A DNA stretch of 64,000 nucleotides. Source: Escherichia phage Ecwhy_1. This document shows, one piece after another, positions 17,275 through 45,885 of this stretch. The stretch lies in sequence record MH791411.1. One strand, written 5' to 3'. Below the pieces are notes generated by a model. That model was not told the DNA's origin. It saw only the letters and a list, made by a program, of their open reading frames with translations, and ran no database searches. Position 1 is the stretch's first letter; each line of letters starts with the position of its first letter. The translations under genes were made by a program, and so were the position numbers.

Positions 17275-17483
17275 TGCTTCTCCACTCATCTCCTGAAGAA
17301 ATACAAGAAGTACTTAAGGAATTTGAGTTGAATAAGTCAGATATTAAAACTGCATTAATGGAGTGTTCTGTTTATATGGAAAGTGTTGATTACGGAACAC
17401 TACTTAATATGCCACTAATTGATAGAGACTTATTAGTTAAGTCTTTTAATAAGAAAATTAAAAAACAAAACGAGAAGCACTAA
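17274..17483 (+). CDS. small hypothetical protein (69 aa)
   Basis: ATG overlaps the stop of the upstream gene (TAATG); followed by a strong terminator. Confidence 0.4.
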   Translation: MLLHSSPEEIQEVLKEFELNKSDIKTALMECSVYMESVDYGTLLNMPLIDRDLLVKSFNKKIKKQNEKH

Positions 17484-17492
17484 CTCACAAGG

Positions 17493-17523
17493 AGCCAGCA
17501 CATTGTTGCTGGTTTTTTTTTTT
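17493..17523 (+). terminator. rho-independent terminator
   Basis: GCCAGCA-cattgt-TGCTGG hairpin followed by a 12-nt T-run. Confidence 0.75.
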
Positions 17524-18815: not shown

Positions 18816-18833
18816 GGCTCCCTTTCCTTTTAA
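18800..18833. terminator. bidirectional terminator between convergent genes
   Basis: GGGAGC-taag-GCTCCC hairpin flanked by an A-run upstream and T-run downstream; the plus-gene stop codon lies in the loop. Confidence 0.7.
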
Positions 18834-22025: not shown

Positions 22026-22851
22026 CTTCGTTTTTCCTTTCAATCATGTTCATTTCAATTTCGATTTGACGAGTGTGTGATGGTGTAAAACCATGCATCT
22101 CAAGTAAATCGTCTCGGATGTTACGAACATTTTTCTCACTATTAAGAATCGAACGGAAACTATTGTTAACGAACGAAGTATAGTAAGAGAAAGGATTCAA
22201 CTGTACTGCTGGTTTATCTTTTTTGTAAAGAATACTCTCTTTAAAGAGAAGTGCGTTTTTAACTAATTGTATTCTGGCATCACCCATCATTTCATCCAAA
22301 TATGTATAGTTTCTATAGTTGGATTTGTGTGAGATTTCCTCTGCCAGTTTAATGAACATTTTACCTAGTTCATTAGTGATTTTACCATGAACAGTACTGA
22401 ATTCTCCGTCTTCAAGATCACCTTTCCAGTGAGAACGAACGACTTCGTACAGAATACCTTCTTCATCTACAATGTAATGTTTGAATGGTTCAAAATTTAC
22501 TCTTGTATCTGCTGGGATATGTTCATCGGTAATTACACGAATAACCACCTCATCGATAGGTACATCAGTCAGTACTAAATTGTGCTCATCTGCGTATTCC
22601 TTCGCTTTCTTCGCACTCATACCTTCTTTTTCACGAATTGCATCAAGCATTTCATTGTTGAGACGTTTAATACGTGCTGCTTTAGCTTTATCTAAAAGTT
22701 CTGCTGTAATTTCGGATTCATCAAAAACGATATAATCGTACATACTGTAGCACTTATCTAGTAACCAGCAATATGAGATTTTACTTTTTTGTATCTCACG
22801 AAGTAAATCAGCATTGTTAAGATACTTTTTACGCTTCGGCCTATTTGTCAT
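22012..22851 (-). CDS. 55: late-transcription sigma factor (gp55-like) with ~120-aa internal insertion, ~279 aa
   Basis: KYLNNADLLREIQKSK resembles T4 gp55 KYNYVNNKELLQAIIDWK; LGKMFIKLAEEISHKSNYRNYTYLDEMMGD and NPFSYYTSFVNNSFRSIL resemble the gp55 core as recalled; GGAGAG SD. Confidence 0.65.
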   Translation of the reverse strand: MTNRPKRKKYLNNADLLREIQKSKISYCWLLDKCYSMYDYIVFDESEITAELLDKAKAARIKRLNNEMLDAIREKEGMSAKKAKEYADEHNLVLTDVPIDEVVIRVITDEHIPADTRVNFEPFKHYIVDEEGILYEVVRSHWKGDLEDGEFSTVHGKITNELGKMFIKLAEEISHKSNYRNYTYLDEMMGDARIQLVKNALLFKESILYKKDKPAVQLNPFSYYTSFVNNSFRSILNSEKNVRNIRDDLLEMHGFTPSHTRQIEIEMNMIERKNEDGSI

Positions 22852-22908
22852 TATTTCAACTCTCCATGTTTTAAATCCAATAGGTACATTCCTTGTACCA
22901 TCAATGTT

Positions 22909-22936
22909 ATTATAGCACCAAAAACGTCTTTGTCCC
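22909..22936 (-). promoter_or_regulatory. sigma70-like promoter (GGGACA-N16-TATAAT) for the gp55-gp47-gp46 operon
   Basis: TATAAT at 22914-22909 and GGGACA at 22936-22931 read on the minus strand. Confidence 0.4.
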
Positions 22937-22939
22937 ACG

Positions 22940-22947
22940 TATAAATA
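22940..22947 (+). promoter_or_regulatory. T4-type late promoter TATAAATA for the baseplate operon
   Basis: Exact TATAAATA 36 nt upstream of the 22983 ATG. Confidence 0.65.
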
Positions 22948-22982
22948 CATCAAATGTTCCCTTCTTATGGAGAATCAAAAAG

Positions 22983-29009: not shown

Positions 29010-29498
29010 ATGAGTAAATGGGAAATCAAAAATACCGACGAACAATTTTTTAAAGAAATTAAAGAATTTGAAGGTACTATTGCGTATCAGAAAAAACTTG
29101 GTTATTTTAAAAATGATAAGTTTTGGGTATATAAAGACAGTCTAGGTCTTGATACCATTGGTTACGGTCACCTTGTACTTAAGGGTGAAAGTTTCAAAAA
29201 TGGACTCACTGAAGCAGAAGCTGATGCTCTCCTTATAAAAGATGCTCAGACCGCTTACAATGACGCAAAATCAATCTATGATCAATTTGGAATGACTGCT
29301 CCAGTACAGGTTCAGCGTGTATTGTGGTTTATGGTGTTCCAAATGGGTAAATCAAAAGTTTTAAATTTCAAAAAAGCGATGGCTGCTCTCGGTCGTGGTG
29401 ATTATAAAACTGCTGGTAAAGAAATGCGTGATAGTTCGTGGTACAAACAAACCACATCCAGAGCGGAGAAGATGGCTCGCATCGTCGAATCCGTATAA
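29010..29498 (+). CDS. e: lysozyme / endolysin, GH24 (T4 gene e-like), 162 aa
   Basis: EFEGT...YKDSLGLDTIGYGHL...MVFQMG...WYKQTTSRAEK matches T4 lysozyme motifs including the catalytic Glu/Asp/Thr; paralogous to the C-terminus of the spike. Confidence 0.9.
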   Translation: MSKWEIKNTDEQFFKEIKEFEGTIAYQKKLGYFKNDKFWVYKDSLGLDTIGYGHLVLKGESFKNGLTEAEADALLIKDAQTAYNDAKSIYDQFGMTAPVQVQRVLWFMVFQMGKSKVLNFKKAMAALGRGDYKTAGKEMRDSSWYKQTTSRAEKMARIVESV

Positions 29499-29513: not shown

Positions 29514-29909
29514 ATGGCAATTGTTTTTAAAGGTTTTTCAACTCCAGTAGTTGGAAGAACTGAAACATTGTATGACAGTGAATTGGTTCGTCAGGATTTA
29601 ATGAATCATTTCAATACAAAAAAAGGTGAACGTGCATTTGATGCTGATTATGGGTTCATTGCGTGGGATTTGCTATTTGAATTGGATGGTTATAATACAA
29701 TCAACCTTTTGGAAGCAGATGCCCGTAGAATTATTAGCTTGGACCCACGTTTAAGCTTAAAGAAACTTCAAATATCAAGAATTGAGTACGGTTATCAGAT
29801 GGATATAGTACTTGAATATGTTGTTCTCAATACTCTTGAAGAATTAACTATAGTTTTTGATGCAAGAAGTAACAACAGAATGGCTACCTATTCTGTATCA
29901 TCTTTGTAA
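29514..29909 (+). CDS. 25: baseplate wedge protein gp25 / gpW-like, 131 aa
   Basis: KKGERAFDADYGFIAWDLLFE aligns with T4 gp25 RKGSRPFDPEFGCDLSDQLFE as recalled; size matches. Confidence 0.7.
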   Translation: MAIVFKGFSTPVVGRTETLYDSELVRQDLMNHFNTKKGERAFDADYGFIAWDLLFELDGYNTINLLEADARRIISLDPRLSLKKLQISRIEYGYQMDIVLEYVVLNTLEELTIVFDARSNNRMATYSVSSL

Positions 29910-30011: not shown

Positions 30012-33000
30012 ATGTCACAACAAAAAAGGCAATCAAATTTATACGCTGGTGAAGATTGGACTCAAGTATATGAAAGCTTTTATAAGATCAATCTAACAGC
30101 TTATGACTTTGATACAATCCGTCAAAGTATGATTGACTATCTACGTGCTACGTACCCAGATTCTTTCAACGACTGGATCGAAAACGACCAGTTCATCTTT
30201 ATTCTAGATACCATTTCTATGCTAGGACAGAACTTAGCATTCCGTATGGATTTAAACACTCGTGAGAACTTCCTAGATACTGCTACTCGTCGTGCATCAG
30301 TACTGAAACTCGCAAAAATGATTTCTTACTCTCCACGCCGTTCATATCCAGGTCGTGCAGTTGCTAAATTAACAGAAATAAAAACCAACCAAGACGTTCG
30401 TAATAGTTTTAACGAATCACTTAAGGATAAAATCATTCGTTGGAATGACCCAATGGACACAAACTGGTATGAGAACTTCATTCTAGTTATGAACAGTTCA
30501 TTTGTCAGTACTAACCAGTTTGGTAATCCGGTTAAACGTATCGATATCAATGGTGTTTCTCGTCAGCTATATCGTATGAATACAATTCCAATGTCAGCAC
30601 CAAGTCTTCCATTCACAGCTACAGTTAATGGTGAATCGATGACATTTGAAGTTGTCAACCCTGATATTACAGCAGTTGGTGTTGAAGAGCGTCACCCTGA
30701 ACCACAAGAGCAAAAATATATCGTTTATCAGAATGATGGTAACGGATTTAGTTCACCAAATACTGGTTTCTTCGTTTATTTTGTTCAAGGGACATTGACA
30801 TACCAAGATTACCAATATAATATTCGTGAAGAAAACCGTATCCAAGACATCAACGTAGATAATATCAACGAAACTGATGTTTGGGTTCAGGAAATCAACG
30901 AAGATGGTATTGTACGTACTAAATGGACCAAAGTTCCATCTATGGAAAGTATCGCATACAATACTGTTAACCGTCAACTAAAAACAATCTTTGCTGTCAC
31001 AACTCGTGATAAAGACCAGATTACTATTAAGTATCCTGATTCTCGTAGTGGTGTTGTTCCTCGTGGGACGTATCGTGTATGGTATCGTGTTAGTAATGGT
31101 GAAACATACAACATTAAAACGTCTGAAATCCAGAACAAAAGTGTAAAATACACCTATAGAACCAAAACACAATCAAGCTATGAATCCAGTACTTTGGATA
31201 TTCGTTTCACATTGCAATATGAATCAGATCGTGCACAAAGTGCAGAAACAATTGAACAAATTAAGGCTCGTGCTCCACAAATGTATTACACTCAAAACCG
31301 TTTTGTTAACGGCGAAGACTATAACATTGCTCCGTTGAGTTTGGGTAACACAGTTCTTAAATCGAAAGCAATTAACCGTTTATATAGTGGACAGTCACGA
31401 TTCATTGATATTAATGATCCAACTGGTAAGTATCAAAACACTGATGTGTTTAGTGATGATGGTTCAATGTATCAAGAAAACACACAATTTAATAAATCTT
31501 TACAATTACCAACTACCAAAACAAATGCTAGTATTGTAATTGATAATATTCAGCCATTGATTGGTGAGAATGCTGTAATCCAACGTTATCAAGCATATCC
31601 ACCGAATACAATTGGTATTGAAATTCAACAAAAATGGACACCTGAATACAATTCTAATTACGCAACTAATACGTATGGTCGTATTATGGGGGCAACAGGT
31701 AACGTATTCGGAAATTATCAAGTTGGTACGTTGATTAAGTTTTCAAATGCCGGAACTACTGTGTGGGCTAGTATTGTTAGTGTTCTTGATAATGGATATT
31801 ACGTTCTAAGTACTTCAGTTTCATCAAATATGCAAGCACAAGAGTACATTTTACAATACAGAACACGTTTTAATAGTGTCGAAGTGCAAGCAATCGCTGC
31901 AATGCTTGATAAAAAGACAGATTTTGTTATTATTCATGATAAAGAAACAACTTCTTGGATTCCATTAGAAATCAGTACTGATGAAGATACTATTTCTTAT
32001 AATGGAAATGAAGTTCTTGTTATGATTAACATCAAATATACTGCTGAAACCTGGGAATTTGATGCGAATGGCGTTGAATATGTGTTCGTTGGTGGTGATA
32101 AAGTTCGTTTTTACTTCGTTTCTTCTAAAAAGATAACTGATATTAGTACTGGTAGTGTTCAAAGTGACAAAATTGAAATTTTATCATCAAATACCACAAG
32201 CAATAGTAATGCTGGGTTGACAAGTAACATAGATTTCCAAATTTATGACACAATTCAACAAGAAAACGGGTATCTTGATGGTTCTCGTGTGGTTATCACC
32301 TCTGAAAACGTTGATAGTAATGGAATCCCACTAGAACCTAATCAATTCAGAGAAATTGTACCAAATTGGACTGGTGAAGATTCAGTTAAATATGGTGGTA
32401 TATTGGTTTTCCAAGAAAACGATGATTTCACTATATCAGTACTGTCATTACCGAATGATACTTTCACTATTCTTGATTCTTCATGGGCTTATACAATGGA
32501 TCAAGCACTTGCAGAAACTAATGCGTATAAGAGAAGTGAATTTGTTCGCAACAATGCTATTCGATCAACAACATTGAGTGGTATCTATAGTAAAGGTTCA
32601 GGCTTTATAGTTGGCTTTAACTATGATGGTAAATATTACTTCATTGAACAAACTGTTGGTAATAATAATGACCGTTTAAACCAATTAATTGAGAACTTGA
32701 CCTATTCTGATGATACAACTGCTGCAACTCCTGAACTTGCGTTTTATCGTGCTATTGTTAATATCGGTACTAATGCTGATGTTAACCAAAAGTTAGATTA
32801 TTATGGTTATAAAGATGTAACTTCACAATATACCGTAAAAACGAATGCAAGAACTGGTATTGATTTCCACTGGAAACATTATGCACCAGATGATAATCGC
32901 ATTGACCCAAGTAGAACAAACTTGATTGACATGTATGTATTAACCAATTCATACAAAACTGAAGTTGATGTATGGTTGAAGAATGGAACACAAGGTAATA

Positions 33001-33473
33001 TGCCTAAACCGCCAACATCTGTTGAATTGAAAGACATTTTTAAAGAAGTTGAACAAAAAATAGTCATCAGTGACAGTATTATTTGGCATAGTGCAGAATA
33101 TCTACCATTATTTGGTGCGAGTGCTGCTGAAGATTATAAAGCAGATTTTAAAGTCGTCAAATTGCCTAACAGTACAATGAGTGATGATGAAATTCGTCAA
33201 AATGTCGTAGCACTAACTAACGAGTATTTTAATGTTGACAACTGGGATTTTGGTGAAAGTTTCTATTACACAGACTTGTGTACATACATTCATTCCCAAT
33301 TAGGACGACATATTAGTACTATTGTTATCGTAGCTCAAAACCCTAACTCTAAATTTGGCTCACTATTTGAAATCCCTTCACGTTCTGACCAGATTTTCTT
33401 AAGTACTGCATCAGTTGATAACGTACAGATAGTCAATTCCTTGGCTAAGAGTAACATTAACATTGGTTCATAA
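30012..33473 (+). CDS. 6: baseplate wedge protein, baseplate-J (gp6-like) family, 1153 aa
   Basis: N-terminal region DYLRATYPDSFNDWIENDQFIFILDTISMLGQNLAFRMDLNTRENFLDTATRRASVLKLAKMISYSPRR is typical of baseplate J / gp6; follows gp25-like as in P2 W-J. Confidence 0.6.
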   Translation: MSQQKRQSNLYAGEDWTQVYESFYKINLTAYDFDTIRQSMIDYLRATYPDSFNDWIENDQFIFILDTISMLGQNLAFRMDLNTRENFLDTATRRASVLKLAKMISYSPRRSYPGRAVAKLTEIKTNQDVRNSFNESLKDKIIRWNDPMDTNWYENFILVMNSSFVSTNQFGNPVKRIDINGVSRQLYRMNTIPMSAPSLPFTATVNGESMTFEVVNPDITAVGVEERHPEPQEQKYIVYQNDGNGFSSPNTGFFVYFVQGTLTYQDYQYNIREENRIQDINVDNINETDVWVQEINEDGIVRTKWTKVPSMESIAYNTVNRQLKTIFAVTTRDKDQITIKYPDSRSGVVPRGTYRVWYRVSNGETYNIKTSEIQNKSVKYTYRTKTQSSYESSTLDIRFTLQYESDRAQSAETIEQIKARAPQMYYTQNRFVNGEDYNIAPLSLGNTVLKSKAINRLYSGQSRFIDINDPTGKYQNTDVFSDDGSMYQENTQFNKSLQLPTTKTNASIVIDNIQPLIGENAVIQRYQAYPPNTIGIEIQQKWTPEYNSNYATNTYGRIMGATGNVFGNYQVGTLIKFSNAGTTVWASIVSVLDNGYYVLSTSVSSNMQAQEYILQYRTRFNSVEVQAIAAMLDKKTDFVIIHDKETTSWIPLEISTDEDTISYNGNEVLVMINIKYTAETWEFDANGVEYVFVGGDKVRFYFVSSKKITDISTGSVQSDKIEILSSNTTSNSNAGLTSNIDFQIYDTIQQENGYLDGSRVVITSENVDSNGIPLEPNQFREIVPNWTGEDSVKYGGILVFQENDDFTISVLSLPNDTFTILDSSWAYTMDQALAETNAYKRSEFVRNNAIRSTTLSGIYSKGSGFIVGFNYDGKYYFIEQTVGNNNDRLNQLIENLTYSDDTTAATPELAFYRAIVNIGTNADVNQKLDYYGYKDVTSQYTVKTNARTGIDFHWKHYAPDDNRIDPSRTNLIDMYVLTNSYKTEVDVWLKNGTQGNMPKPPTSVELKDIFKEVEQKIVISDSIIWHSAEYLPLFGASAAEDYKADFKVVKLPNSTMSDDEIRQNVVALTNEYFNVDNWDFGESFYYTDLCTYIHSQLGRHISTIVIVAQNPNSKFGSLFEIPSRSDQIFLSTASVDNVQIVNSLAKSNINIGS

Positions 33474-33479: not shown

Positions 33480-33507
33480 AAGGCGTTCTTCGGAACGTCT
33501 TTTTTAT
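33480..33507 (+). terminator. rho-independent terminator
   Basis: GGCGTTC-ttcg-GAACGTC hairpin followed by TTTTTTAT. Confidence 0.7.
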
Positions 33508-33553
33508 ATCATAAATAAATCAAATGAATGAACGAATTATATGGAGTCCAAAA

Positions 33554-36500
33554 ATGACTAATAATTTTAAGTTTCAACCTACACAGATGGCTGAAGCAGT
33601 ACAGAAGAAGCTTTTCATAAAAAGATTGCCTGAGTGGATGCAAGGCTTAGAAGATATTCAGAAAGTCAGTGATGATGTTATCCAACAATGGTTTAATCCG
33701 GCTGAAAACGAATTAGTTGACGGCTACATTGGTGACATGGGTTCTCCGGCAGCAGCAGGGAACATCTTCTTACACGAGTCAACAGTCGCACGTCAACTAT
33801 ATCAGTTGTCCACTGCGTATGTCTCAAGAAATGATGACTCCAGCATTCGTTCAATTCAATTTTATGATGATCTAGTTGGCTATATGAATCATTACGGTGC
33901 ACTAACCGAAAATGAAAGCCGTTTGTTTAATGGTAAGTTCTATTCATGGACCCCACCAATTAACCCAAATAAAATGAACAACTACAGTTCATACCTATGG
34001 GATTCCAAGAATAGCTATAATATCACAACTCCAGATTATATTGTAATGGAACGTGGTGCAGAAAATGGTAACACTTGGTCACTACAAAACTTCTGGTACA
34101 CATTAGGTGAAACTTTAGAAGATGGTACTATCCTAACTGAAGAACTAATGCAAGATTCCCGTTTTGTTCGTGCTCGTGCACCAATTATCGAATACAATAA
34201 AAATATCGAACTAATGAACTACGGTACTAAATTCCGTGGGACAGTTGATTTGTTCTCTGATATTATTAAACCTGAAGATATCGTACAAAAAGATATTAAC
34301 AGCGGTATACGTATTGATGGTATTATTCCACAAGATGGTATGCGTATTCTTTTCACCAGTATTGGTAACAATGGTGAAAACAACCGAATTTATAAAGTAT
34401 ATGTTAAACGTATGCAAGATGGAACACGTGTGTATGGTCTAGCATTAGATCCAGACGAAGAATCTGAAAGCCGTCCGAGTGGTGAACCACAAGATGGTGA
34501 CGTAGTTCTTATTATCAAAGGTAATGAATTTGGTAACAGTTCCATGTATTGGGACGGTTCTCATTGGATTCAAGCACAGTCTAAAACTTCTGTGAACGTA
34601 TTTCCACAATTCCAATTGTATGACCGTAATGGTGTTAAACTAAACAACACTACTACCTATCCATCAAGTACTTTTACTGGTTCTTCACTATTTGGTTTTA
34701 AAATTAACTATAATTATGCAACTGATAGCGTTTATGGTTATAATATTGAACTAGGTGATTACAATTATTACACATATGAGAATTTCCTACAATCAACTCG
34801 TTATACTTACGAGCATTTGGGTGTGGAAGTTGAAATTGATGGACTATATTACTATAACGTAATTGGTGAAGGTAATACAATGAACCTAGAAACTGATTGG
34901 GTTCGTAGTACTGAATACTCCAAACAATATGTTAAACAAACTCCACAGGTTGAACGTACAGTAATGTTCCGCGTGTTCAGTACTGTTTATGACATGGAAA
35001 GTTTCAAAGACCCAGTTGAAGGAATGTATGCTTATGTAATTGAAGTTGACAGAACTTATCAATATTACAAAGCAGAACGTGAAACATATCTTGATTGGCA
35101 TGTTATCGTTGGTGATGGGGTACAAAGCGTTAAGTACAATCATACATTTGAATTGGCACAAAAAGTACTAGATAATTCTGATGATATTATCGAACTAGTT
35201 GTTGATGGTGTGGAAATAAAAGAATACACCAAAACTGTAGTTAATAATCAAGTACAAAGTATTACAATTGATAGCTCTGTTGATTTGGATGAAGATTCTG
35301 TTGTACAAATCAGAACTTATAGTAGCACTATCACTCCTAATAAAGAGTTGGGTGCATATGAAGTTCCAATTAACCTACAAAATAACCCATATAATTCAAA
35401 CATTGAATACATCAACCAAGGTGATTACACCCTGCACTTCCAAGATATTATTCAAAAGAATATTACATCTGGTTCTGCTGATGACTTTAACAATTACGAA
35501 GAACGTTTGGCTGCTGGTTTGGTTAATAATGGTGTAGGCACTAAAATTATTCAAAACGAAGCGTCCATGTTACCACTAATGGCACATACCGCTAATGAAG
35601 ATATTGATTTGTTTGAATCAATCATGTTTATGCAAGCAGAATACTTCCGCTTCATTAACAAGTTCAACACTCAAATGCTTCGTTTGTATGAAGAAGACCC
35701 AAGTGCTTTTCTTGGTAATAGTGCATCAAACATCGTAGATGCGATTCTAACAGCTATTAATATGGGACGTGATAGTACATTCCCATTCTACTATGACAAC
35801 GTTGCAAGCACTGCTGGGTTTATTCGTGCATTTGTCCCACCAACTCCACAGTTCTTGGGTATTTTGCAAGCTTATACACCACAAAAAGCAACATTCTTAA
35901 CTGCTGGTAGTAAATCTAGCTGTTATAATATCAGTCATACTGGTATTATTTCAAAAGCATACCGTGTTATCAATGGTGTTGATAAAATGGATGACGTAGT
36001 TTTTGAATTGGAAAATCGTATCTTTAATAGTATTGATCTTACTTTCAAGGATATTGATTATAAACCAGTACTAAACAGTGAAGACCTATTCCCAACTCCA
36101 TATTTCACTGGTACTGATTATAGTGCAGAAGAAAAGAAAACTCTATTACTACGTGGTTACATTAACTTCACAGCAACCAATGGCATTAGTAACAGTACTC
36201 ATGATTATGATGCAAATAACTGGAGAACTTGGAACTATACTGGTAGTTATTATGTTGTTGATGGTCAACGTACTGAAATTCCTGCTCGTGGTTCATGGCG
36301 TGCAATCTATACTGACCAATATGGCACATATCGTCCAGCAACCCATCCGTGGGAAATGATGGGCTTCTCTCAACGTCCTACTTGGTGGAACCAAGAATAC
36401 GAACCAACCGCAGTTCAAGTTGGTGAACGTGAGGGTGATGTTGTTTATGTGTATGAAGCACTAGTAATGAATGAAAATGGTGATTTGGTCCCAAGTGGAT

Positions 36501-39500
36501 TGTGGGATATTGATGGTACTATCGGTGATAGCAGTACTGGTACTATTTTGTCAGGTGAACGCCGTGGTCAATATGACAAATACAAGCGTTTCGGTGTACA
36601 GCCATTTAAAATCACTAAGACTGGCGAGAAAACCAGTACTGGTATTGATATTTGTGAAGTTGAGTATATTGCACCTGAAGTTTTAGGTCTTGTTAGTGGT
36701 AATTTAGATCATCGTGCAGAACCGTGGTCTTATGGTGACATGGGTGACATGGAATTCACTTACATGAACACTGCGATGTTTGCTTATGACCAAATGCTTC
36801 TTCTATACAAAGCAAAACCAGCACAGTTTGCAAACTATTACTGGGATACCCGTAATGATAACCTTAAACCAGTTTATACTGATGGTTCACAGTTCCTTTA
36901 TGGTGAAACTCGTAAGCGTCTAAACTTTGACAGTACTACATTAGTACATGGTGAGAAAAACACCCGTACTATCGGTTATCAAATGTTTGTTAGTGACTAT
37001 TTGATGTATCAGAATAAGAACATTACCACCAAATACGGTGACGTTGTTCGTTCTTCTTATGTCAATGTCGCTCACAAAATTGGTGGCTTTACTAAAGCAG
37101 ACCAATTGACATTCACTGCTAAATCTTTCGGTTTGATTTCACAAGAAAACCAAACTATCGGTCTAGTTCGTTCCAATAACATTCGCGATGAGCAAATGAG
37201 TGCAGTAAAAATTACTTGGAATGGTAGTGCATATCAAATTGATGGTTATGATTTAGTTGGTGCTAAATTTAAATATAAAATTCCAGTTAAAAATGGAAGA
37301 AAAGTAACTCTTAAATTGGAAGACAGAACTGTTGTTCATTACAATGAATGGAAATCTGAAGGTACATTAGAATATGGTAAAATATTCAATACATACCAAG
37401 AAGTTTATACTTTCATTTGTGGATATGGTGAATATCTAAAAGAACATGGCTGGATTTTTGAAGATGTAAATGATAGTGGTACTCAACAAGACTGGACAAC
37501 TATTGCTAAAGACTTTGTTATTTGGAGTCAGAATAATTTAAGTACTGGTGAGTTCATCTCCTGCACTCCAAGTGCAGCTAATGCTAAATTTGGTGCGGAT
37601 TTTGGTTCAGTTCAATCTGTTACACAGAATAGTGGTGGTGTTTGGTCACTACTCGATGATGAAAACCAAGGTATCCGTCAATATGAAATCGAAACTTCGC
37701 GTATCGGTAACGTATTCACAGTGAGAACTACATCTGAATCACAAAAACGTATGGCGTTGATTCGTTTGAGCCTAAGTTCATATGAACACGCAGTTGTTTT
37801 TGATGATAAAACTATCTTTGGTGATTACATTTACCAACCAACTTATGGTGCTATTCAAGAATTGATTAAAATGTATGGTTACATTACTGGGTCATGGACT
37901 GGTCGCCTACAAGCACCTGGTTTCATTATCCTAGAAGCAGGAACTTTACCATCATTTGAAAAATTAGTAACTGATTTTGAATTATATTATAATAGTGAAA
38001 CTCCTGTGAGTGATGTTCAGCTTCAAGAGTTATCAAATCACTTGATTGGCTATCAAACTCGTGATTATCTACAACGTATGATTAGTAGTGATGTTAGTCG
38101 TGTTGATTTCTATAAAGGATTCATTCATGACAAAGGTACTAACCAAGTAATGGAAAAAGTACTACGCGTTTCTAAATCTTACGACACTGATGAATATAAA
38201 GCACTTCAGGAATGGGCATTTAAGATTGGTACTTATGGTAATATCAATGGTAAGAAAAATCTACAATTTAAACTAATCAATGACCAATTTAAACAACAAC
38301 CACAGATGGTTTCGTTTGATGTTAATGCTACATCAAATGGTACTGGTAATGGTATTGTTTATTACGGTGAACAAGGGGTTGACTCACGCTGGATTACTCG
38401 TCCAAATGGTAAGTTTTCATTCCCAATGCGTAGTGGAAGAAGTGAGAATATCCAACTTCCAGACATTGGTCCTGTAACACTAGATGAAATTTCATACGTT
38501 ACTAAAGATTTCAGTACTGCATATAATGATCGTATCAATTATATGAATAACAGTGGTGAAATCCCAGATTCTGTATGGATGTTTAAAGATGGTAATGATT
38601 TGTGGAATATTTTCGAACTAGTAGACACTGAAGTTGAGATGCTCTCTATCGTTCCAATTGAAAATACCGATGTATATGCAGAACAATTCTGTAAAGTAAC
38701 TCTAAGTGATGATATCCCACTAAATGATGGTGATTATTATTACTTTGTTGATGAAACTAACTTTATGCCAGATACATTGACTATAGAAAGTCAATATTAT
38801 ACTGCGGGTAATGACCCTAGAGTTATGGTAGTTCCGTTTGACACTTCAATCACTATTGACTTCACTGATCCTGATACTCGCCCACGCTTGTATCGTTATG
38901 TTTCACGATTCAGTACTGAAGAGATGCGTCAGGAATACATTGACAGAAAATATAGTTTTAAAGCTCCACAAAGTACTTTGTTTGACCGCCCAACCACATA
39001 TGATGAGCGTACTAACATTACTGCGTTGTACCTAAACGTGTTTGACCCAATCAACGGTGTTATTCCTGGTGCAGCGATGCAGAACGTTACCTACACATCT
39101 CCAGTTGACCCAGCACAATACAACAGCAATGGTGAATTGATTCAAGCATGGGGTGCTGATAAAGTTGGTCAGGTTTGGTGGAACACCAGCACTGCTTTCT
39201 ACTTAGATTACACTCGTGCAATCTATGATGCTGATGGTAATGTGGATGTTGATGCAACAAATGAATATAAACGTTATAACTGGGGCAGATTGCTACCGCA
39301 CAGTACTGTTGATGTTCTTGAATGGGTATGTTCACCAGTTGAACCATATAACTGGGACAAATACTGCAAAGACGTTGCTAACAAAAATAAAAACAACACT
39401 ATGTACCTACCAAGCGGAACCGCATTGGAAGATAATTATAGTACGTTCTTAGAATATGATAGCACAACTGATACTTATGTTACAAAATACTATTTCTGGG

Positions 39501-42500
39501 TTCGTGATACAATCTATGTACCACCATTGCATTCCAGAACTAAATCTTGTACTGATATTGCTCGTATTATTAAAGAACCAGCACAGCTTAACATTCCTTG
39601 GTTTGCACCAATCAATGAAAGCTCGTTCATTCTAAGTAATATGCAATTTGAAGTCAACGATGACACAAGTATTTTAACTGTTTCTTATTACATGGATAAT
39701 ACTGAAGTTATTAAACATGACCAGTATCAATTATGTAAAGAAGGTGATAGCTATAACTTCAATCCATCAATCTGGACTTCTATGTGGAATTCTATGATTG
39801 GTCAAGAAACTACTGAATCAGGAACTGTTATTGATTTACTATATCCTTTAGTACCAAACGGTTTAGGTTCTAATAAGACTTGGTTCCAAGATGTAATTGA
39901 AGCTCGTAGAAACTTTGTAGAAAGTGCAAATAACTATTATCGCTCACAGAATATAACAACTAACACTGTTCTAATGGACGAAGTGTTTAATGTTAAAACT
40001 ACTGAAGTTAACCCGAATGAAGTATCATATCGTGTACTAACTTACAATAGTGAATTAGTCATTGCACCTGAAAGTGACAAGTTCAAAGAAAACGACGCAG
40101 TACTAGTAAGTACTAGTGGTGTATTACCTAACCCACTATCAACTAGCTCTGTATATTTTGTGCATATTGATGCTAATGGTTATATTCATCTAATGAATAG
40201 TCCATCAAGTGCTGGTAGTGTGGTTACCATTACATTGGAAAACCGTGGTGAAGGTCAACAGAAAATGATTAAACAATCAGACTATGTTGAAGCACTAGGA
40301 ACTTCATTGGACATGACCCAGTACTGGTCACTAGCAGATTGGTATGATATTGGCTACGATAAAAATACTGCATATACACAAGAATCCAGCCTAGAAGATG
40401 CAAACACTAAGAACTATCAAGTTGGTGACATTATCAGAATTACAGATGTTGATGGCATCTGGACATTGTACATTAAAGCACAATCACGTGATTCAGTTTA
40501 CTGGAAAGCAATTGGTCGTGAAAATAGTACAGTTGAATTGAATGATATGTTATACGCTGACTATACAGTTCGTGATGCTAATGGTTCGTTGAGTAATCGT
40601 GAGATTAACGTTCGTAAAGCACTAGCTTTATTGAAGAACTCATTCGACTTACATCAGAGTGAAATTGTGTTTGATATGGTTAAGTATGTTCACGTAGAAC
40701 AAAGCGTTGTTGATTGGGTATTCAAAACATCTTACATTTATATTGTAGGTTTAGAACAATCATTAGTACAGAACTATTCCAACGACAACTTGATTAATCA
40801 AATCGTTGAGTACTTTGAAGAAGTTAAACCATATAGAACTAAGATTCGTTCCCAGATTGAACAGAAAACTTCAGATGATGATTTAATTAAAGGTTTGTGT
40901 AATGATTTAGATCCTAATGGCTATATATTTGCAGATGGGACTTGGGTTAAAACGGAAAAAGACATTTGGGATTATGAATATGCTCAATTCAATGAGGTAA
41001 CTCAACGTTGGGAGCAAGTTGGTGAATTGCCAAGTGATTTCGTAACACCTAATCGCCGTTTCCAAGAAATTGATGTTATCATGCACTACGACAACACTCA
41101 ATGTAAACCAAATGATAATTTGGCAAGTGTTGATGTATTGGAAGAAGTGAATAAGAAATATCAATCTAATGCACAAGATGTTGTTAGTAATTTTGAATTA
41201 CAACGTTACAAATATACATTCCCAGAATACAGTGATGAAGATTTCGACCTATTGGTTGCTTATCAGATGCAATTGTATTACCCAGAATTGAACGTAACTC
41301 TAGGGATTGCTTACGGTGTTAACCAATGGTATGCAGACCATGCAGATGATTTGGTAGCAACCGCAGAATTCACAGAAACGTTGAATCGTGTATATAAAGA
41401 ATCAACACAAAATGAAATGTTTAATGACGTAAATCATTATGTTCAGTATAACACACTCTCTAACCGTTTGAAATTGTACACAGGTGCAGATGATGAAGTA
41501 ATTCATGATGAGGTTGGATGTGGATTTAGTGGGTTAACCTATGATGATAATCCAAGCACCAGACTACCGTTTGGTTATGCATCCAGTACTGATTATAACT
41601 TTGGTTACTTTGAAGTTAGTAGTGAGTTGTATAAAAAGTATGTTTCTTTAATTAAAGAAAACAATACTACTGCAACTGATGATGAAGTTAGAATTATACT
41701 TGAAGTTGAATATGGTGTTTATTCATATCGCCATGTAGATGAAGATGGAAATCAACGATTCTACAATGACGCAATTCATGTATTGTCTGGTATGCGTGGT
41801 TTGTATGACAAAGATGCTACCGACCATTATGAAAAGGCTGAAGAAATACTAAGTAGAATGCCTATTGATATTCATGCATTTACTATGATGCCACGAAAAT
41901 ATGTTTATGTTAATGTTAATGGTGTATACGAGAGTATCCCAGATGACCAAAGCATTGATGATTTCATGGAAGACAAATTCATAACTGACGGTCAACTAGT
42001 TCAATTGGCAGAAATAAATCTTGATGACTTACCTCTTGATAGAAATAACCCAATGTACAGTGATTATCAGCACATCCTAGATAGCATCACCGATGCTAAG
42101 TACTACGATGATATGAATGCATTTGATAACCTAGCACTTGAATCACAAACTTCCGAGTTAAAATGGGAAGTTGAAGGTGACGAAGTAGATCCGTACATAA
42201 TCGACATTTCTGATATTAACCCATCAGGAAGAAAGATTGGTCAGATTCGCTTCACAGTTGATGGTTATGGATTCAATAGTGTTTCACTAGTTCAATTGAG
42301 AGACAATAGTAGATATAAAACTGAAGGTATGGTTATCATCAACCCTTATAAAACAACAGAAGCAATTGTTAGTATTCCTTCTTACGCTAAGATTGAAAAT
42401 GATATTAGTAAATCATACAGTAAGTATGATGAAAAATACTTCTATAAAATTAAATCAATTGTTAGTGATACAGAAGCTGAAGTAATTGACAATACCCTAT

Positions 42501-43525
42501 CTGATGGTGATAAGGTTATGATATTCACAACTGATGGTGAAGATTATGTGAGATACCAAAACAATGCATGGGAAACCATCTTGAGTGTATCAAAAATCAA
42601 AACTGACACCACACCAACCTTGTACACAGTAAGAAACACTGCGAACGGAACTGTAGAACTACTAGATAGTACTGGAGTTGTACTTCGTTATGATAACATC
42701 ACTAAACAACAACAGAATGAACCAGCAATACCTCTAGCATTGAACATCGTTCGTATTAGAACCTTTGCTGATCCAGAATTCTTGGTTGATGGTGTTAAGT
42801 TGTATGAAACAAATAGAAACTATGCTATCGACGCAATGAACTATGAAGTATTCTACGACACAACACTATACGGTGGTTCTTATAATGATGGAATTACACC
42901 AGATGACGTTGATGTTTGGGTAGTGTCTAACGAGATATTTGAAGTTGATGGTGTTACCATTGATAACGGATATAACTTACCAATTACTGGTGCAGGTGTT
43001 CTTAGTGAGTTAGTGAGAACCAAAATGACTGATAGTGTGGAAATTAACGTGTTCGAGTATGATGTTGGTATTATTCAACCAGTACTGAATACTGAAGGGG
43101 TATGGGAATATGCATATCCACTAGTTAGTGATACATATATTGGTGTAGTTGGTGGAACCGTAACTAACATTACTGCTATCAGTGAAGAAAATACTACTTA
43201 TGTTTCACAACCAGATTCAGTTAGTCCATATAGTGTTACTAATAATGTTCTATCTGGTGCTGGTGCAAGTATGAATGATATTATTTCTCTTGGTTTTGAA
43301 AAAGTTGAAGTACGTTTTGCAAATAACTTACTCCGTGGGGTAATGTATAGTGCAGAACACGACTTTAAAGAGAATGTGACATATTCATTTAATGGCTTGA
43401 ACTTAGGTAAAGTTAATTTACTAAAACGTTATAGTGTTAACAGTTATCCAATCGAACTATCTGTTTACTCCGATAGTTTGCAAATAAGTGGTACTGACAT
43501 TAAAAATCTATTAGAAGTTAAATAA
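33554..43525 (+). CDS. giant virion protein (~3323 aa), probable baseplate wedge (gp7/gpI-position) or fiber-network protein
   Basis: Uninterrupted 10-kb ORF; start taken at the second ATG with GGAG SD; CATAAATA late-type motif upstream; non-repetitive composition; position after gp6-like. Confidence 0.55.
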   Translation: MTNNFKFQPTQMAEAVQKKLFIKRLPEWMQGLEDIQKVSDDVIQQWFNPAENELVDGYIGDMGSPAAAGNIFLHESTVARQLYQLSTAYVSRNDDSSIRSIQFYDDLVGYMNHYGALTENESRLFNGKFYSWTPPINPNKMNNYSSYLWDSKNSYNITTPDYIVMERGAENGNTWSLQNFWYTLGETLEDGTILTEELMQDSRFVRARAPIIEYNKNIELMNYGTKFRGTVDLFSDIIKPEDIVQKDINSGIRIDGIIPQDGMRILFTSIGNNGENNRIYKVYVKRMQDGTRVYGLALDPDEESESRPSGEPQDGDVVLIIKGNEFGNSSMYWDGSHWIQAQSKTSVNVFPQFQLYDRNGVKLNNTTTYPSSTFTGSSLFGFKINYNYATDSVYGYNIELGDYNYYTYENFLQSTRYTYEHLGVEVEIDGLYYYNVIGEGNTMNLETDWVRSTEYSKQYVKQTPQVERTVMFRVFSTVYDMESFKDPVEGMYAYVIEVDRTYQYYKAERETYLDWHVIVGDGVQSVKYNHTFELAQKVLDNSDDIIELVVDGVEIKEYTKTVVNNQVQSITIDSSVDLDEDSVVQIRTYSSTITPNKELGAYEVPINLQNNPYNSNIEYINQGDYTLHFQDIIQKNITSGSADDFNNYEERLAAGLVNNGVGTKIIQNEASMLPLMAHTANEDIDLFESIMFMQAEYFRFINKFNTQMLRLYEEDPSAFLGNSASNIVDAILTAINMGRDSTFPFYYDNVASTAGFIRAFVPPTPQFLGILQAYTPQKATFLTAGSKSSCYNISHTGIISKAYRVINGVDKMDDVVFELENRIFNSIDLTFKDIDYKPVLNSEDLFPTPYFTGTDYSAEEKKTLLLRGYINFTATNGISNSTHDYDANNWRTWNYTGSYYVVDGQRTEIPARGSWRAIYTDQYGTYRPATHPWEMMGFSQRPTWWNQEYEPTAVQVGEREGDVVYVYEALVMNENGDLVPSGLWDIDGTIGDSSTGTILSGERRGQYDKYKRFGVQPFKITKTGEKTSTGIDICEVEYIAPEVLGLVSGNLDHRAEPWSYGDMGDMEFTYMNTAMFAYDQMLLLYKAKPAQFANYYWDTRNDNLKPVYTDGSQFLYGETRKRLNFDSTTLVHGEKNTRTIGYQMFVSDYLMYQNKNITTKYGDVVRSSYVNVAHKIGGFTKADQLTFTAKSFGLISQENQTIGLVRSNNIRDEQMSAVKITWNGSAYQIDGYDLVGAKFKYKIPVKNGRKVTLKLEDRTVVHYNEWKSEGTLEYGKIFNTYQEVYTFICGYGEYLKEHGWIFEDVNDSGTQQDWTTIAKDFVIWSQNNLSTGEFISCTPSAANAKFGADFGSVQSVTQNSGGVWSLLDDENQGIRQYEIETSRIGNVFTVRTTSESQKRMALIRLSLSSYEHAVVFDDKTIFGDYIYQPTYGAIQELIKMYGYITGSWTGRLQAPGFIILEAGTLPSFEKLVTDFELYYNSETPVSDVQLQELSNHLIGYQTRDYLQRMISSDVSRVDFYKGFIHDKGTNQVMEKVLRVSKSYDTDEYKALQEWAFKIGTYGNINGKKNLQFKLINDQFKQQPQMVSFDVNATSNGTGNGIVYYGEQGVDSRWITRPNGKFSFPMRSGRSENIQLPDIGPVTLDEISYVTKDFSTAYNDRINYMNNSGEIPDSVWMFKDGNDLWNIFELVDTEVEMLSIVPIENTDVYAEQFCKVTLSDDIPLNDGDYYYFVDETNFMPDTLTIESQYYTAGNDPRVMVVPFDTSITIDFTDPDTRPRLYRYVSRFSTEEMRQEYIDRKYSFKAPQSTLFDRPTTYDERTNITALYLNVFDPINGVIPGAAMQNVTYTSPVDPAQYNSNGELIQAWGADKVGQVWWNTSTAFYLDYTRAIYDADGNVDVDATNEYKRYNWGRLLPHSTVDVLEWVCSPVEPYNWDKYCKDVANKNKNNTMYLPSGTALEDNYSTFLEYDSTTDTYVTKYYFWVRDTIYVPPLHSRTKSCTDIARIIKEPAQLNIPWFAPINESSFILSNMQFEVNDDTSILTVSYYMDNTEVIKHDQYQLCKEGDSYNFNPSIWTSMWNSMIGQETTESGTVIDLLYPLVPNGLGSNKTWFQDVIEARRNFVESANNYYRSQNITTNTVLMDEVFNVKTTEVNPNEVSYRVLTYNSELVIAPESDKFKENDAVLVSTSGVLPNPLSTSSVYFVHIDANGYIHLMNSPSSAGSVVTITLENRGEGQQKMIKQSDYVEALGTSLDMTQYWSLADWYDIGYDKNTAYTQESSLEDANTKNYQVGDIIRITDVDGIWTLYIKAQSRDSVYWKAIGRENSTVELNDMLYADYTVRDANGSLSNREINVRKALALLKNSFDLHQSEIVFDMVKYVHVEQSVVDWVFKTSYIYIVGLEQSLVQNYSNDNLINQIVEYFEEVKPYRTKIRSQIEQKTSDDDLIKGLCNDLDPNGYIFADGTWVKTEKDIWDYEYAQFNEVTQRWEQVGELPSDFVTPNRRFQEIDVIMHYDNTQCKPNDNLASVDVLEEVNKKYQSNAQDVVSNFELQRYKYTFPEYSDEDFDLLVAYQMQLYYPELNVTLGIAYGVNQWYADHADDLVATAEFTETLNRVYKESTQNEMFNDVNHYVQYNTLSNRLKLYTGADDEVIHDEVGCGFSGLTYDDNPSTRLPFGYASSTDYNFGYFEVSSELYKKYVSLIKENNTTATDDEVRIILEVEYGVYSYRHVDEDGNQRFYNDAIHVLSGMRGLYDKDATDHYEKAEEILSRMPIDIHAFTMMPRKYVYVNVNGVYESIPDDQSIDDFMEDKFITDGQLVQLAEINLDDLPLDRNNPMYSDYQHILDSITDAKYYDDMNAFDNLALESQTSELKWEVEGDEVDPYIIDISDINPSGRKIGQIRFTVDGYGFNSVSLVQLRDNSRYKTEGMVIINPYKTTEAIVSIPSYAKIENDISKSYSKYDEKYFYKIKSIVSDTEAEVIDNTLSDGDKVMIFTTDGEDYVRYQNNAWETILSVSKIKTDTTPTLYTVRNTANGTVELLDSTGVVLRYDNITKQQQNEPAIPLALNIVRIRTFADPEFLVDGVKLYETNRNYAIDAMNYEVFYDTTLYGGSYNDGITPDDVDVWVVSNEIFEVDGVTIDNGYNLPITGAGVLSELVRTKMTDSVEINVFEYDVGIIQPVLNTEGVWEYAYPLVSDTYIGVVGGTVTNITAISEENTTYVSQPDSVSPYSVTNNVLSGAGASMNDIISLGFEKVEVRFANNLLRGVMYSAEHDFKENVTYSFNGLNLGKVNLLKRYSVNSYPIELSVYSDSLQISGTDIKNLLEVK

Positions 43526-43558
43526 CAAAAAGGAGAGCAAATGCTCTCCTTTTCTTTT
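43526..43558. terminator. bidirectional terminator between the giant ORF and the ClpA-like gene
   Basis: GGAGAGCA-aa-TGCTCTCC hairpin flanked by an A-run and T-run. Confidence 0.75.
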
Positions 43559-45847
43559 TTACGCAATAACTTTTTCTACTGCTTTAGTGCGTTTAGGTTT
43601 GATAGCCAATTTACCATCAATCACATCAAACGTCACGTTACCACCATTAACTAGAGAACCACACAACATCTCTTTAGCTAGTGGAACACGGATGTTTTGC
43701 TCAATAGTGCGTTTCATTGGACGTGCACCCATCCCAACTTTAACACCATTTGTTGCCAACCACTCACGTGCCGCTTTAGTCAGGGAAACTTTAACTTTGC
43801 GGTCTTTGATTTGTTCATTCAGACTACCCATGAACTTATCAATGATGCTGTCAATCGCTTCGCTGCTTAGGTCTTTGAATGTCACAATACTATCGATACG
43901 GTTGATGAATTCAGGTGGCAAGAATGCTTTAATAGCTTTATCTTGTGCTGTATCACTACCGCTCATCCCAATACTACGCTTGGTTGAATCTGCTGCACCA
44001 AGGTTAGTCGTCATAATAACAGTTACGTTATTGAAGTAAACAGTTTTACCTTGTGAACCAGTCAAACGTCCTTCGTCCAGAACCTGTAGGAAGGTTAGTA
44101 GTACTTTACGATCAGCTTTTTCGATTTCATCAAGCAACAGTACTGCATTCGGGAACTGCTCAATCTTGTCGAGTAGCAGACCGTTACCAGAATCGTGACC
44201 AACATAGCCTGGAGGTGAACCAATCAGTTTAGCAACAGTATGTTCCTGTGAAAACTCGGACATATCGAAACGAATCAGTTCGGAACCAGTTGCATCAGCC
44301 AGTGCTTTGGTAATTTCAGTTTTACCAGTACCAGATGGACCAACAAACATGAATGCACCTTGAACACTTGATTTATCACGCAGACCAGCACGAGCTACCA
44401 TCACGTTATCAACCAGTTTCTGTACTGCTTCTTCTTGACCGTATACACGAGAACGGAGTGCATCTGGTAGATTACGCATACGTTCACTTTCAGTGCAAGC
44501 AACCACGTTAATATCTAGGTTTGCGATACCTGCAACAACTTCTTGAATCAGTGCAACAGTGATGATGTTATCATCAGTTTCACGAGAACGTACTTTCGCT
44601 GCTGCCGCATCCATTAGGTCGATTGCTTTGTCAGGGAAGTGTTTGTTCTTCAGGAACTTATCACTTAGTGTAATAACTGCATCCATTGCTTCAGTACTGA
44701 ACTCTACGTTATGGAAAGTTTCATAAGTAGATTTCAAACCATTCACAATCGCACGGGTTTCATCAATTGTTGGCTCAACTACATCAATTTTCATGAAACG
44801 GCGAGTTAGTGCACTATCTTTTTCGATGTTTTTACGATATTCATCGTAAGTTGTTGCACCGATTACACGAATCTCACCACGAGATAGTGCAGGTTTGAGC
44901 ATGTTGCTCATATCCATAGAACCGTTGCTTGCTGACCCAGCACCAACCATAATATGGATTTCATCGATGAACACAATAGTGTTTTCACGTTTCTTCAGTT
45001 CTTTTAGTAGGTTATCGATACGTTCTTCGAACTCACCACGGTACTTAGTACCAGCAGTCAGTGCACCTACGTTCAGAGACAGAATTTCAACATCTTTAAG
45101 ATGCTCTGGTACTTCACCATCAGCGATTGCCTGTGCTAGACCATCAATGATTTGAGTTTTACCAACACCAGCTTCACCAGTCAGGATGGCATTCTTCTTA
45201 GTCTTACGGGCCAGAGTTTCAATCAGTGCAGAAAGCTCTTTCTGGCGACCAATCATTGGGTCAAGTTTACCTTCTTTTGCAAGTGCGGTTAGGTTAGTGG
45301 TGTAATCTTCTAAACCTTTTTGTTTGGACGATGGTTGCTGTTGTGCCACTTTTTTCTCCCCAGTTGGCTCATCACTAATGCTTTGAAGGTTGATTCCGTT
45401 GTCGATTGCTTCTACGTGCTTCTGTAGAGTTCGTGCTGCTTCAGTACAAGTGATACCCTCTTCACGCAATGCTGCTTCTAGTGCAGTATTTGGGAAGGAC
45501 AAACACTCAAACAGTACAAAATAAGCATCAATTGAGAAATCATCACGTTTAAGTTGCTCAATTACTGATTTCTTAGAAAGTTCCTGAACTACACGGTTCA
45601 CGAGAAGTGATGTGCGGTTCGCTTCATCACCATCAGCACTTTTAGGTGCATGTGGGAATGTTGTATTCTTCAGATATGCAATCAAACGACCGTGTAGGTT
45701 GTCTGCATCGATGTTCATATCTTCAAATACTGCTTTGATGCTATCGATTGTCAGTACTGTAGCACTTAGATGGTCAATAGTCAAGAATGTATGACCCAGA
45801 GAAGTTGCCAGTTCGTCGCTTTTTTTGAATAATTGGGTAAGATTCAT
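43559..45847 (-). CDS. clpA: ClpA-family AAA+ unfoldase (two AAA+ modules), ~762 aa
   Basis: D1 Walker A GEAGVGKT, Walker B IVFIDEIH, arginine-finger region ALTRRF; D2 Walker A GPSGTGKTE, Walker B LLLDEIEKA, sensor MTTNLG and GARPMKR; collinear with E. coli ClpA as recalled; AGGAGA SD. Confidence 0.9.
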   Translation of the reverse strand: MNLTQLFKKSDELATSLGHTFLTIDHLSATVLTIDSIKAVFEDMNIDADNLHGRLIAYLKNTTFPHAPKSADGDEANRTSLLVNRVVQELSKKSVIEQLKRDDFSIDAYFVLFECLSFPNTALEAALREEGITCTEAARTLQKHVEAIDNGINLQSISDEPTGEKKVAQQQPSSKQKGLEDYTTNLTALAKEGKLDPMIGRQKELSALIETLARKTKKNAILTGEAGVGKTQIIDGLAQAIADGEVPEHLKDVEILSLNVGALTAGTKYRGEFEERIDNLLKELKKRENTIVFIDEIHIMVGAGSASNGSMDMSNMLKPALSRGEIRVIGATTYDEYRKNIEKDSALTRRFMKIDVVEPTIDETRAIVNGLKSTYETFHNVEFSTEAMDAVITLSDKFLKNKHFPDKAIDLMDAAAAKVRSRETDDNIITVALIQEVVAGIANLDINVVACTESERMRNLPDALRSRVYGQEEAVQKLVDNVMVARAGLRDKSSVQGAFMFVGPSGTGKTEITKALADATGSELIRFDMSEFSQEHTVAKLIGSPPGYVGHDSGNGLLLDKIEQFPNAVLLLDEIEKADRKVLLTFLQVLDEGRLTGSQGKTVYFNNVTVIMTTNLGAADSTKRSIGMSGSDTAQDKAIKAFLPPEFINRIDSIVTFKDLSSEAIDSIIDKFMGSLNEQIKDRKVKVSLTKAAREWLATNGVKVGMGARPMKRTIEQNIRVPLAKEMLCGSLVNGGNVTFDVIDGKLAIKPKRTKAVEKVIA

Positions 45848-45885
45848 GTATTCTCCTAAATGAGTAGTCACTCTAATTAATAAAC

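Follow-up and report, generated by a model that had tools for sequence, protein, structure and literature searches.

A 10-kb gene in the baseplate module of the jumbo coliphage Ecwhy_1 and the putative role of its product as a wedge and peripheral scaffold

The giant open reading frame

Escherichia phage Ecwhy_1 is an Asteriusvirus jumbo coliphage, and the stretch of its genome analysed here (64,000 nucleotides (nt) of sequence record MH791411.1, hereafter the window) carries a giant gene which directly follows genes for gp25-like and gp6-like proteins. A preliminary description of the window had noted it as a single open reading frame (ORF) of ~10 kb at 33554–43525, about three times larger than T4 gp7; both statements hold, the gene having 3,323 codons and T4 gp7 1,032 residues. 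In the ORF listing of the window the + strand frame is open as a single ORF from 33524 to 43525, and the five alternative frames of the same stretch contain 170–538 stop codons. That description put the start at the ATG at 33554, and this is almost certainly correct. It is preceded by a GGAG ribosome-binding site (Table 1), three of the four homologue alignments which report the initial methionine show it as invariant or nearly so, and the GenBank start of the orthologue in phage vB_Ec-M-J is the same ATG.

Comparison with the orthologue of phage PBECO4 (82% nucleotide identity) gave a ratio of nonsynonymous to synonymous substitution rates (dN/dS) of 0.083 overall, and of 0.04–0.12 across all 300-codon blocks, the C-terminus included. 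Since this ratio is low along the full length, the whole 10 kb must be translated and under purifying selection. Self-BLAST disclosed no internal repeats, in agreement with the earlier remark that this is not a simple repeat protein, and no paralogue was found among the other proteins of the window. The giant gene is real and strongly constrained.

Family and virion association

At the nucleotide level the giant ORF is 99.8% identical to EcMJ_317 of vB_Ec-M-J, which is annotated as “virion structural protein,” 99.1–99.7% identical to its counterparts in eight other E. coli phages, and ~82% identical to those of 121Q (gp582), PBECO4 (gp538), phAPEC6, G17 and others. The protein matches the profile phrog_10938 [E = 0, 5,479 bits; residues 1–3320 against profile positions 1–3324], the members of which include EcMJ_317, 121Q gp582, PBECO4 gp538, phAPEC6 gp245, RaK2 ORF070w, CBB_236 and PA5oct gp128. 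Set against this family it is the same gene, with the same neighbours and the same length; there is no material difference and the window adds no new feature. Protein identity to the RaK2 orthologue (3,326 residues) is ~70% over residues 1–2450.

Megablast returned 50 records, with the ORF intact at a coverage of at least 80% in 34 phage records. By tblastn the family is carried by 92 phage records, 72 of which cover at least 80% of the conserved core; the carriers comprise Asteriusvirus, RaK2/K64-1, GAP32, the Erwinia/Serratia/Yersinia Eneladusvirus group, PA5oct-like Pseudomonas phages, Atu_ph07, SCTP-2 and XacN1. Orthologues of the same length occur in Asteriusvirus, Alcyoneusvirus, Mimasvirus, Eneladusvirus and PA5oct-like genomes. 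With a word-indexed search we obtained 237 homologues with identities down to 24%, and the 120 listed are all 2,780–5,638 residues long. Exhaustive searching with a profile of the N-terminal 460 residues extended the family to 1,783 representatives at E ≤ 1e-3 (848 at E ≤ 1e-30), each standing for a metagenomic cluster formed at 50% identity. Among the 150 matches listed most have 3,000–6,362 residues, and with a single exception their best-matching stretch begins within the first ~30 residues; shorter family entries look like fragments truncated by contig ends. A search with the C-terminal 869 residues alone gave no match, which we ascribe to the limit of the word index, dozens of full-length homologues sharing this region at 44–86% identity.

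In the paper on phage CBB, the “largest ORF” serves as a common landmark for aligning the Rak2-like genomes, and CBB_236 is listed as detected in virions by electrospray ionization tandem mass spectrometry (ESI-MS/MS; 21 peptides) beside the wedge protein CBB_237. The phAPEC6 orthologue gp245 (381.88 kDa) is likewise represented by 17 unique peptides in the virion proteome of that phage (ESI-MS/MS), beside gp244, a “baseplate wedge” protein, while PA5oct gp128 has been named among the two largest proteins. Presence in the virion is thus shown for the orthologues phAPEC6 gp245 and CBB_236, so that absence from virions, one of the two outcomes which the preliminary description had named as refuting it, is answered in the negative. 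Databases and literature therefore already contain the gene and record its size, conservation and virion association; our literature search found no paper assigning a function or a structure to the giant protein, and a preprint on transposon mutagenesis of phiKZ has no bearing on this family.

A few records depart from this picture. Three of them, MH494197 (CMSTMSU), OR699183 and OR699182, break the orthologue up into 11, 3 and 4 coding sequences (CDS), the split records including SD-1_S14 and SD-6_S16. In EJP2 (OQ411014) the orthologue is labelled “D-alanyl-D-alanine carboxypeptidase,” a domain which Pfam does not find in the protein of the window. These split or mislabelled records probably reflect errors of sequencing and annotation.

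One might take such splits, into 3–11 CDS, as a sign that the ORF is an artefact in which several genes were fused by an error of assembly or sequencing. We give this practically no credence. The same uninterrupted ORF is found in 34 independent phage records, in RaK2 and in PA5oct-type phages, as well as in the 1,783 metagenomic clusters (mostly 3,000–6,400 residues among those listed), and dN/dS is uniformly low over the full length; the split records are the exception, for which sequencing errors offer the simplest explanation. The independent intact records and the uniform dN/dS effectively refute the artefact, the other outcome which the preliminary description had named as refuting it.

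The baseplate module

The same-strand gene order in the window is gp53-like protein, a 751-residue virion protein, gp5-like hub, small lysozyme, gp25, gp6-like protein and giant protein. The gp25-like gene was identified by its PF04965 motif. Its neighbour, which matches phrog_10646 in full length, also possesses a phrog_219 [“baseplate wedge subunit”] motif at residues 26–125 [E 3.4e-21], and its N-terminus shows a weak BLAST match to T4 gp6 [E 0.07]; the phAPEC6 orthologue of this gp6-like protein, gp244 (131 kDa), is present in virions.

The triad consisting of gp25, a wedge protein of ~1,130 residues and the giant protein is kept in PBECO4 and also in a distant metagenomic locus (L003, 27% identity). 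In vB_Ec-M-J, too, the giant gene lies directly downstream of the gp25 and gp6-like genes. In RaK2 the gp6-like wedge gene ORF071w lies directly 5' of the giant ORF070w, and the small ORF before ORF071w is unannotated. PA5oct shows the same neighbourhood (gp128–130), gp128 standing beside gp129 (wedge), gp130 and gp133 (hub). The motif, the profile match and the conserved triad bear out the earlier placement of the giant gene in the baseplate module at the position of a gp7/gpI-type protein. The table of T4 homologues in the accessible part of the CBB paper has gp6, gp25 and gp53 as present, and gp7, gp8, gp10 and gp11 are not among its entries there, so that it offers no rival to the giant protein as gp7.

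The hub protein of this module combines an OB domain, a DUF2345 motif, an M23 peptidase-like region and a C-terminal lysozyme, and after it comes another gene, for a separate lysozyme. So many cell-wall enzymes at the tail tip are unusual; the same remark has been made for RaK2 gp078.

Domain organization and predicted structure

BLAST and alignment mapping divide the giant protein into a core (residues 1–2450) common to the whole family down to 24% identity and an acidic C-terminal region (residues 2451–3323) which can be aligned only within the enterobacterial and Vibrio branches. Within the core, residues 1–150 are a separate conserved block, bounded in distant homologues by an insertion hot-spot at residues ~150–160. 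Further hot-spots in the homologue alignments lie at residues ~1256 and ~1590–1800, and lineage-specific inserts at residues ~451–550, ~951–1040 and ~2201–2250. Marine homologues carry a CBM_5_12 module at the ~1256 site and FG-GAP repeats in the 1590–1800 region. Insertions of this kind at variable sites are as expected if the protein is an exposed, host-facing scaffold.

Two AlphaFold2 models were built, each from an alignment of 23 sequences, and were searched whole rather than by domain. That of residues 1–1200 is confident [predicted local distance difference test (pLDDT) 84.4, predicted template modelling score (pTM) 0.79] and that of residues 1240–2439 moderately so [pLDDT 72, pTM 0.40]. 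Both are predicted to be chains of small β-sandwich or β-barrel modules with interspersed helical segments. The first ~55 residues contain three low-confidence helices (residues 9–47), followed by a compact conserved α/β module; low confidence in a monomer model would be as expected for helices which need partners. A second segment of this sort lies at residues 1409–1544, which include the invariant residues H1412, D1417, W1448, G1450, G1522, K1527 and G1528. Strong conservation combined with a pLDDT of 28–50 suggests that this segment folds only with partners, and we regard it as a candidate partner-binding or oligomerization segment.

No Pfam domain was found in the whole giant protein at E ≤ 1. 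Searches of all PDB chains with phmmer and with a 14-sequence profile returned only noise [E 0.5–1.9], Foldseek found nothing in the PDB at E ≤ 0.001 for the model of residues 1–1200, and no enzyme fold was recognized in the two models. There are weak structural matches to the adaptor domains at the N-termini of tailspikes and fibres (CBA120 TSP4, T7 gp17, phi92 endosialidase), to phage neck and tube proteins, to pilin-like Ig domains and to generic β-barrels (UBA1 FCCH, FNR-like), and also, weakly, to baseplate chains (KP1 gp6, the Baseplate_J protein of a Streptomyces contractile injection system (CIS), P1 BplA, phiKZ gp27 and gp87, and a phi812 baseplate chain). Such matches, weak as they are, agree in theme with the wedge and scaffold role proposed below. 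The giant protein is a multi-domain, non-repetitive protein in which no enzyme domain is detectable.

In this respect the preliminary description is not supported. It had supposed that wedge, fibre-network and enzymatic or receptor-binding domains might be fused in the giant protein: there is no Pfam domain, no sequence or profile match in the PDB, no profile similarity to T4 gp5–gp12 or gp53 and no enzyme fold in residues 1–2439, and the C-terminus diverges gradually. The C-terminal region is still under purifying selection (dN/dS 0.07–0.12), and identity to RaK2 declines smoothly along the protein from ~0.74 to ~0.5, with no abrupt replacement of a module.

These findings bear directly on the proposal that the giant protein is mainly a host-binding adhesin, that is, a fibre-like and possibly glycan-degrading receptor-binding protein and not a structural wedge or scaffold. 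We consider this rather unlikely. Pfam finds no carbohydrate-binding or enzyme domain in the protein, and the ~2,400 modelled residues show no β-helix, depolymerase or lectin fold; nor are there internal repeats. The C-termini of the E. coli and Klebsiella phage proteins are still ~50% identical; the last 870 residues diverge gradually and show no exchange from the phages of one host to those of another, which speaks against an exchangeable receptor-binding module of the classic kind. Downstream, moreover, there are genes devoted to tail fibres and colanidase tailspikes. Identity as a repeat fibre or tailspike was rejected on the lack of repeats and of Pfam domains, and of any β-helix or enzyme match within residues 1–2439.

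We judge it still less probable that the protein serves as a tape measure or is internal or ejected. PHROGs places phrog_10938 in the category “head and packaging,” and the largest gene of phiKZ specifies a tape-measure-like tail protein (gp181). The virion RNA polymerase (vRNAP) which phage N4 injects is comparable in size to the giant protein. The models, however, are β-rich and multi-domain rather than a long α-helical rod, and no signature of a polymerase, a lysozyme or any other enzyme is present. The gene directly follows gp25 and gp6, homologues carry CBM and FG-GAP modules of extracellular type, and the related phage Atu_ph07 has another gene annotated as its tape measure. By our own estimate 3,323 residues far exceed the need of the ~94-nm contractile tail section of phAPEC6. 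Both the tape measure and an injected polymerase-like protein were rejected on the β-rich models, the missing enzyme signature and the position of the gene.

A putative wedge and peripheral scaffold

To our knowledge, wherever contractile systems have been studied well, the third chain of the wedge heterotrimer is specified by the gene that comes after gp6/J/TssF. T4 gp7 follows gp6/J as the giant gene does; it is reportedly the third chain of the (gp6)2–gp7 wedge and the backbone which binds the peripheral proteins, and P2 gpI and the T6SS (type VI secretion) protein TssG are minimal versions of it. We consider it the most likely reading, with moderate confidence, that the giant protein takes the gp7 position in the Rak2-like phages as a wedge and peripheral scaffold. 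Each wedge would contain one copy, which would bear the branched fibres and link them to the wedge ring. Our reasons are the matching gene position, the separable N-terminal block of helices and module, the long multi-module body and the exposed insertion sites which accept adhesion modules in relatives. Its baseplate location, the gp7-like role of its N-terminus, a copy number of six and the docking of fibres we infer, in each case, from gene position and anatomy.

On this proposal the giant protein would be the functional counterpart of T4 gp7, P2 gpI or the arm scaffold protein of phage 812. Its N-terminal ~150 residues (the three helices and the α/β module) would join two copies of the 1,153-residue gp6-like protein, as the equivalent of core-bundle helices and trifurcation domain, and six such heterotrimeric wedges would surround the hub. 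The other ~3,100 residues, small β-rich modules strung together, would reach outward as a peripheral baseplate or arm scaffold made of a single polypeptide. This scaffold may bear the branched tail fibres and tailspikes and pass their movement to the wedge ring, which would trigger contraction of the sheath.

The closest model for a protein working in this way is gp117 of phage 812 (Kayvirus), the likeness being one of anatomy and gene order: it too is encoded directly after a gp6-like wedge protein. The wedge module of phage 812 consists of two wedge proteins together with the first 176 residues of gp117 (helices and trifurcation domain), and the remainder of gp117 forms the baseplate arm on which the receptor-binding trimers dock. 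In phiKZ, a very wide fibre platform is made of many proteins attached to the wedge chain gp128, gp27, gp26, gp139, gp130 and gp157 forming the outer “hexagonal star.” Its periphery thus comprises many small and medium-sized proteins in many copies, whereas we propose a single 380-kDa chain for much of it here; phiKZ and Asteriusvirus are unrelated lineages, and similarities between them fall below significance.

Several observations weigh against the proposal. Hhalign comparison of family profiles with T4 gp5, gp6, gp7, gp8, gp9, gp10, gp11, gp12 and gp53 gave probabilities below 1% throughout, those for gp7-type wedge homology being 0.1–0.3%, and the Pfam wedge families gave 0 matches. The structural matches to wedge-type chains have very large root-mean-square deviations and could be generic β-sandwich matches; moreover, of the 3,323 residues the models span 1–1200 and 1240–2439. 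The module contains further uncharacterised virion proteins (273, 751 and 502 residues), among which the true gp7 equivalent might be found. Finally, as to the place of the protein in the virion, the published map of the phAPEC6 tail has a resolution of only ~25 Å. The family profiles were also compared with the gp6-like protein of the window itself, again with probabilities below 1%. Homology to gp7 was thus tested and not demonstrated, and we therefore do not file the giant protein as a member of the gp7 family. The wedge assignment of the preliminary description is thus based on gene order and N-terminal anatomy, and not on homology to gp7.

A bolder version of the scaffold proposal, which we put forward only as a possibility and hold to be doubtful, is that in this large, mostly uncultured clade of jumbo myoviruses one chain of ~380–600 kDa, made of folds without solved relatives, replaces the whole baseplate periphery (gp7, gp8, gp9, gp10 and gp11 of T4; six proteins of phiKZ), with residues 1409–1544 as the site at which the branched fibre network docks or triggers. 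If true, contractile tails would here have a baseplate of a new architecture, with a periphery made of a single chain.

Transcription signals and neighbouring genes

The giant gene has, as had been stated previously, its own late-type motif and stable terminator-like hairpins on both sides (Table 1). The motif at 33510–33517 reads CATAAATA, with the core ATAAATA. There are 16 copies of this core in the window, ten of which sit 7–65 nt upstream of gene starts, for example those at 28969, 28986, 29947, 33511 and 51599 on the + strand and at 51570, 10445, 9236, 6575 and 6228 on the – strand. The exact sequence TATAAATA, reported in the CBB paper as a late promoter of the Rak2-like group, is not enriched in the window. 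A gene annotated as a gp55-like late sigma factor lies nearby, and together with it the distribution of ATAAATA would fit late promoters of the T4 type in which the first base is relaxed.

The arrangement of hairpin and ATAAATA is kept upstream of the PBECO4 and RaK2 orthologues, the stem sequences being different; in the downstream terminator the stem itself is conserved in both phages. At the distant metagenomic locus (6607–20881), where the gp6-like protein is matched by Pfam DUF8360, the two genes share 8 nt, neither terminator nor promoter lies between them, and a separate transcription unit for the giant gene is therefore specific to the enterobacterial lineage.

Table 1. Position of the giant gene, its subdivisions and the surrounding features in the window
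Feature	Coordinates	Strand	Remarks
gp55-like late sigma factor gene	~22012..22953	–	As annotated
gp5-like hub gene	26309..28972	+	
Small lysozyme gene	29010..29498	+	
gp25-like wedge/sheath-initiator gene	29514..29909	+	First of triad; PF04965 GPW_gp25, E 1.5e-8
gp6-like baseplate wedge gene	30012..33473	+	1,153 residues; phrog_10646 full-length; presumed partner, two copies per wedge
Terminator-like hairpin and T-run	33480..33501	+	After gp6-like gene; –11.2 kcal/mol, z –6.1
ATAAATA late-promoter-like motif	33511..33517	+	43 nt upstream of giant start codon
GGAG ribosome-binding site	33543..33546	+	7 nt before ATG; read from the sequence
Giant CDS	33554..43525	+	3,323 residues and stop; 380.5 kDa; pI 4.5
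N-terminal block, residues 1–150	33554..34003	+	Helices and small conserved α/β module; proposed wedge-joining part
Conserved core, residues 1–2450	33554..40903	+	Common to the whole family; BLAST and alignment mapping
Highly conserved stretch, residues 1409–1544	37778..38185	+	pLDDT 28–50
C-terminal region, residues 2451–3323	40904..43522	+	Acidic, lineage-specific
Bidirectional terminator hairpin and T-run	43528..43553	.	–16.6 and –17.7 kcal/mol; common to convergent ClpA/B-like gene
ClpA/ClpB-like double-AAA+ gene	43559..45871	–	Converges on giant ORF
Colanidase-type tailspike gene	52784..54925	+	Single ORF of 713 residues; phrog_6117

The ClpA/ClpB-like gene, which runs towards the giant ORF and has the terminator in common with it, is also found beside the orthologues in PBECO4 and RaK2 (ORF069), and is absent at the distant metagenomic locus. 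It is annotated as “ATP-dependent protease,” yet we found only ATPase and ClpB-small domains in its product, which may be an unfoldase or a chaperone for large virion proteins.

This conserved neighbour with its protease annotation could be taken to indicate that the giant protein is a polyprotein precursor, cleaved into the missing parts resembling gp7, gp8 and gp10, with the adjacent Clp-like ATPase perhaps aiding maturation. The many separable modules of the protein would suit such a fate, as would the published mass spectrometry lists, which are peptide-based; in the published evidence consulted no intact band of ~380 kDa is shown. We nevertheless hold a precursor to be improbable: neither the giant protein nor the Clp-like neighbour (AAA+/ClpB domains only) has a protease domain, the neighbour is not kept at the distant locus, and profile comparison gives no similarity to T4 gp8–gp12. 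We also know of no myovirus baseplate protein which matures by cleavage of a polyprotein.

Farther downstream, the colanidase-type tailspike gene is a single ORF in the window, and the same stretch is annotated as two CDS in vB_Ec-M-J (34229–35311 and 35316–36371 of the segment compared). Either the gene is intact in the Ecwhy_1 isolate, or the vB_Ec-M-J record contains an error.

Significance

The giant gene is nothing new: annotations of it exist in dozens of genomes, orthologues of its product have been identified in virions, and its existence will not surprise specialists in jumbo phages. What this analysis adds is a domain map, an estimate of the size of the family, a negative result for enzyme domains, the lack of any solved structural relative and a conserved segment which resists modelling. 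The family, which is that of the largest gene of the Rak2-like jumbo phages, spans many environments with more than 1,700 sequence clusters and has no solved or recognizable structural relative. The boundaries supplied here are concrete (the N-terminal block of 150 residues, the core of residues 1–2450, the variable insertion sites and the variable C-terminus), and the giant protein is a worthwhile target for cryo-electron microscopy. RaK2, K64-1 and the Asteriusviruses of E. coli are candidates for phage therapy owing to their multi-valent branched tailspikes, and to know the scaffold which carries the fibres and couples them to contraction would help to explain, and possibly to engineer, the broad host range of these phages.

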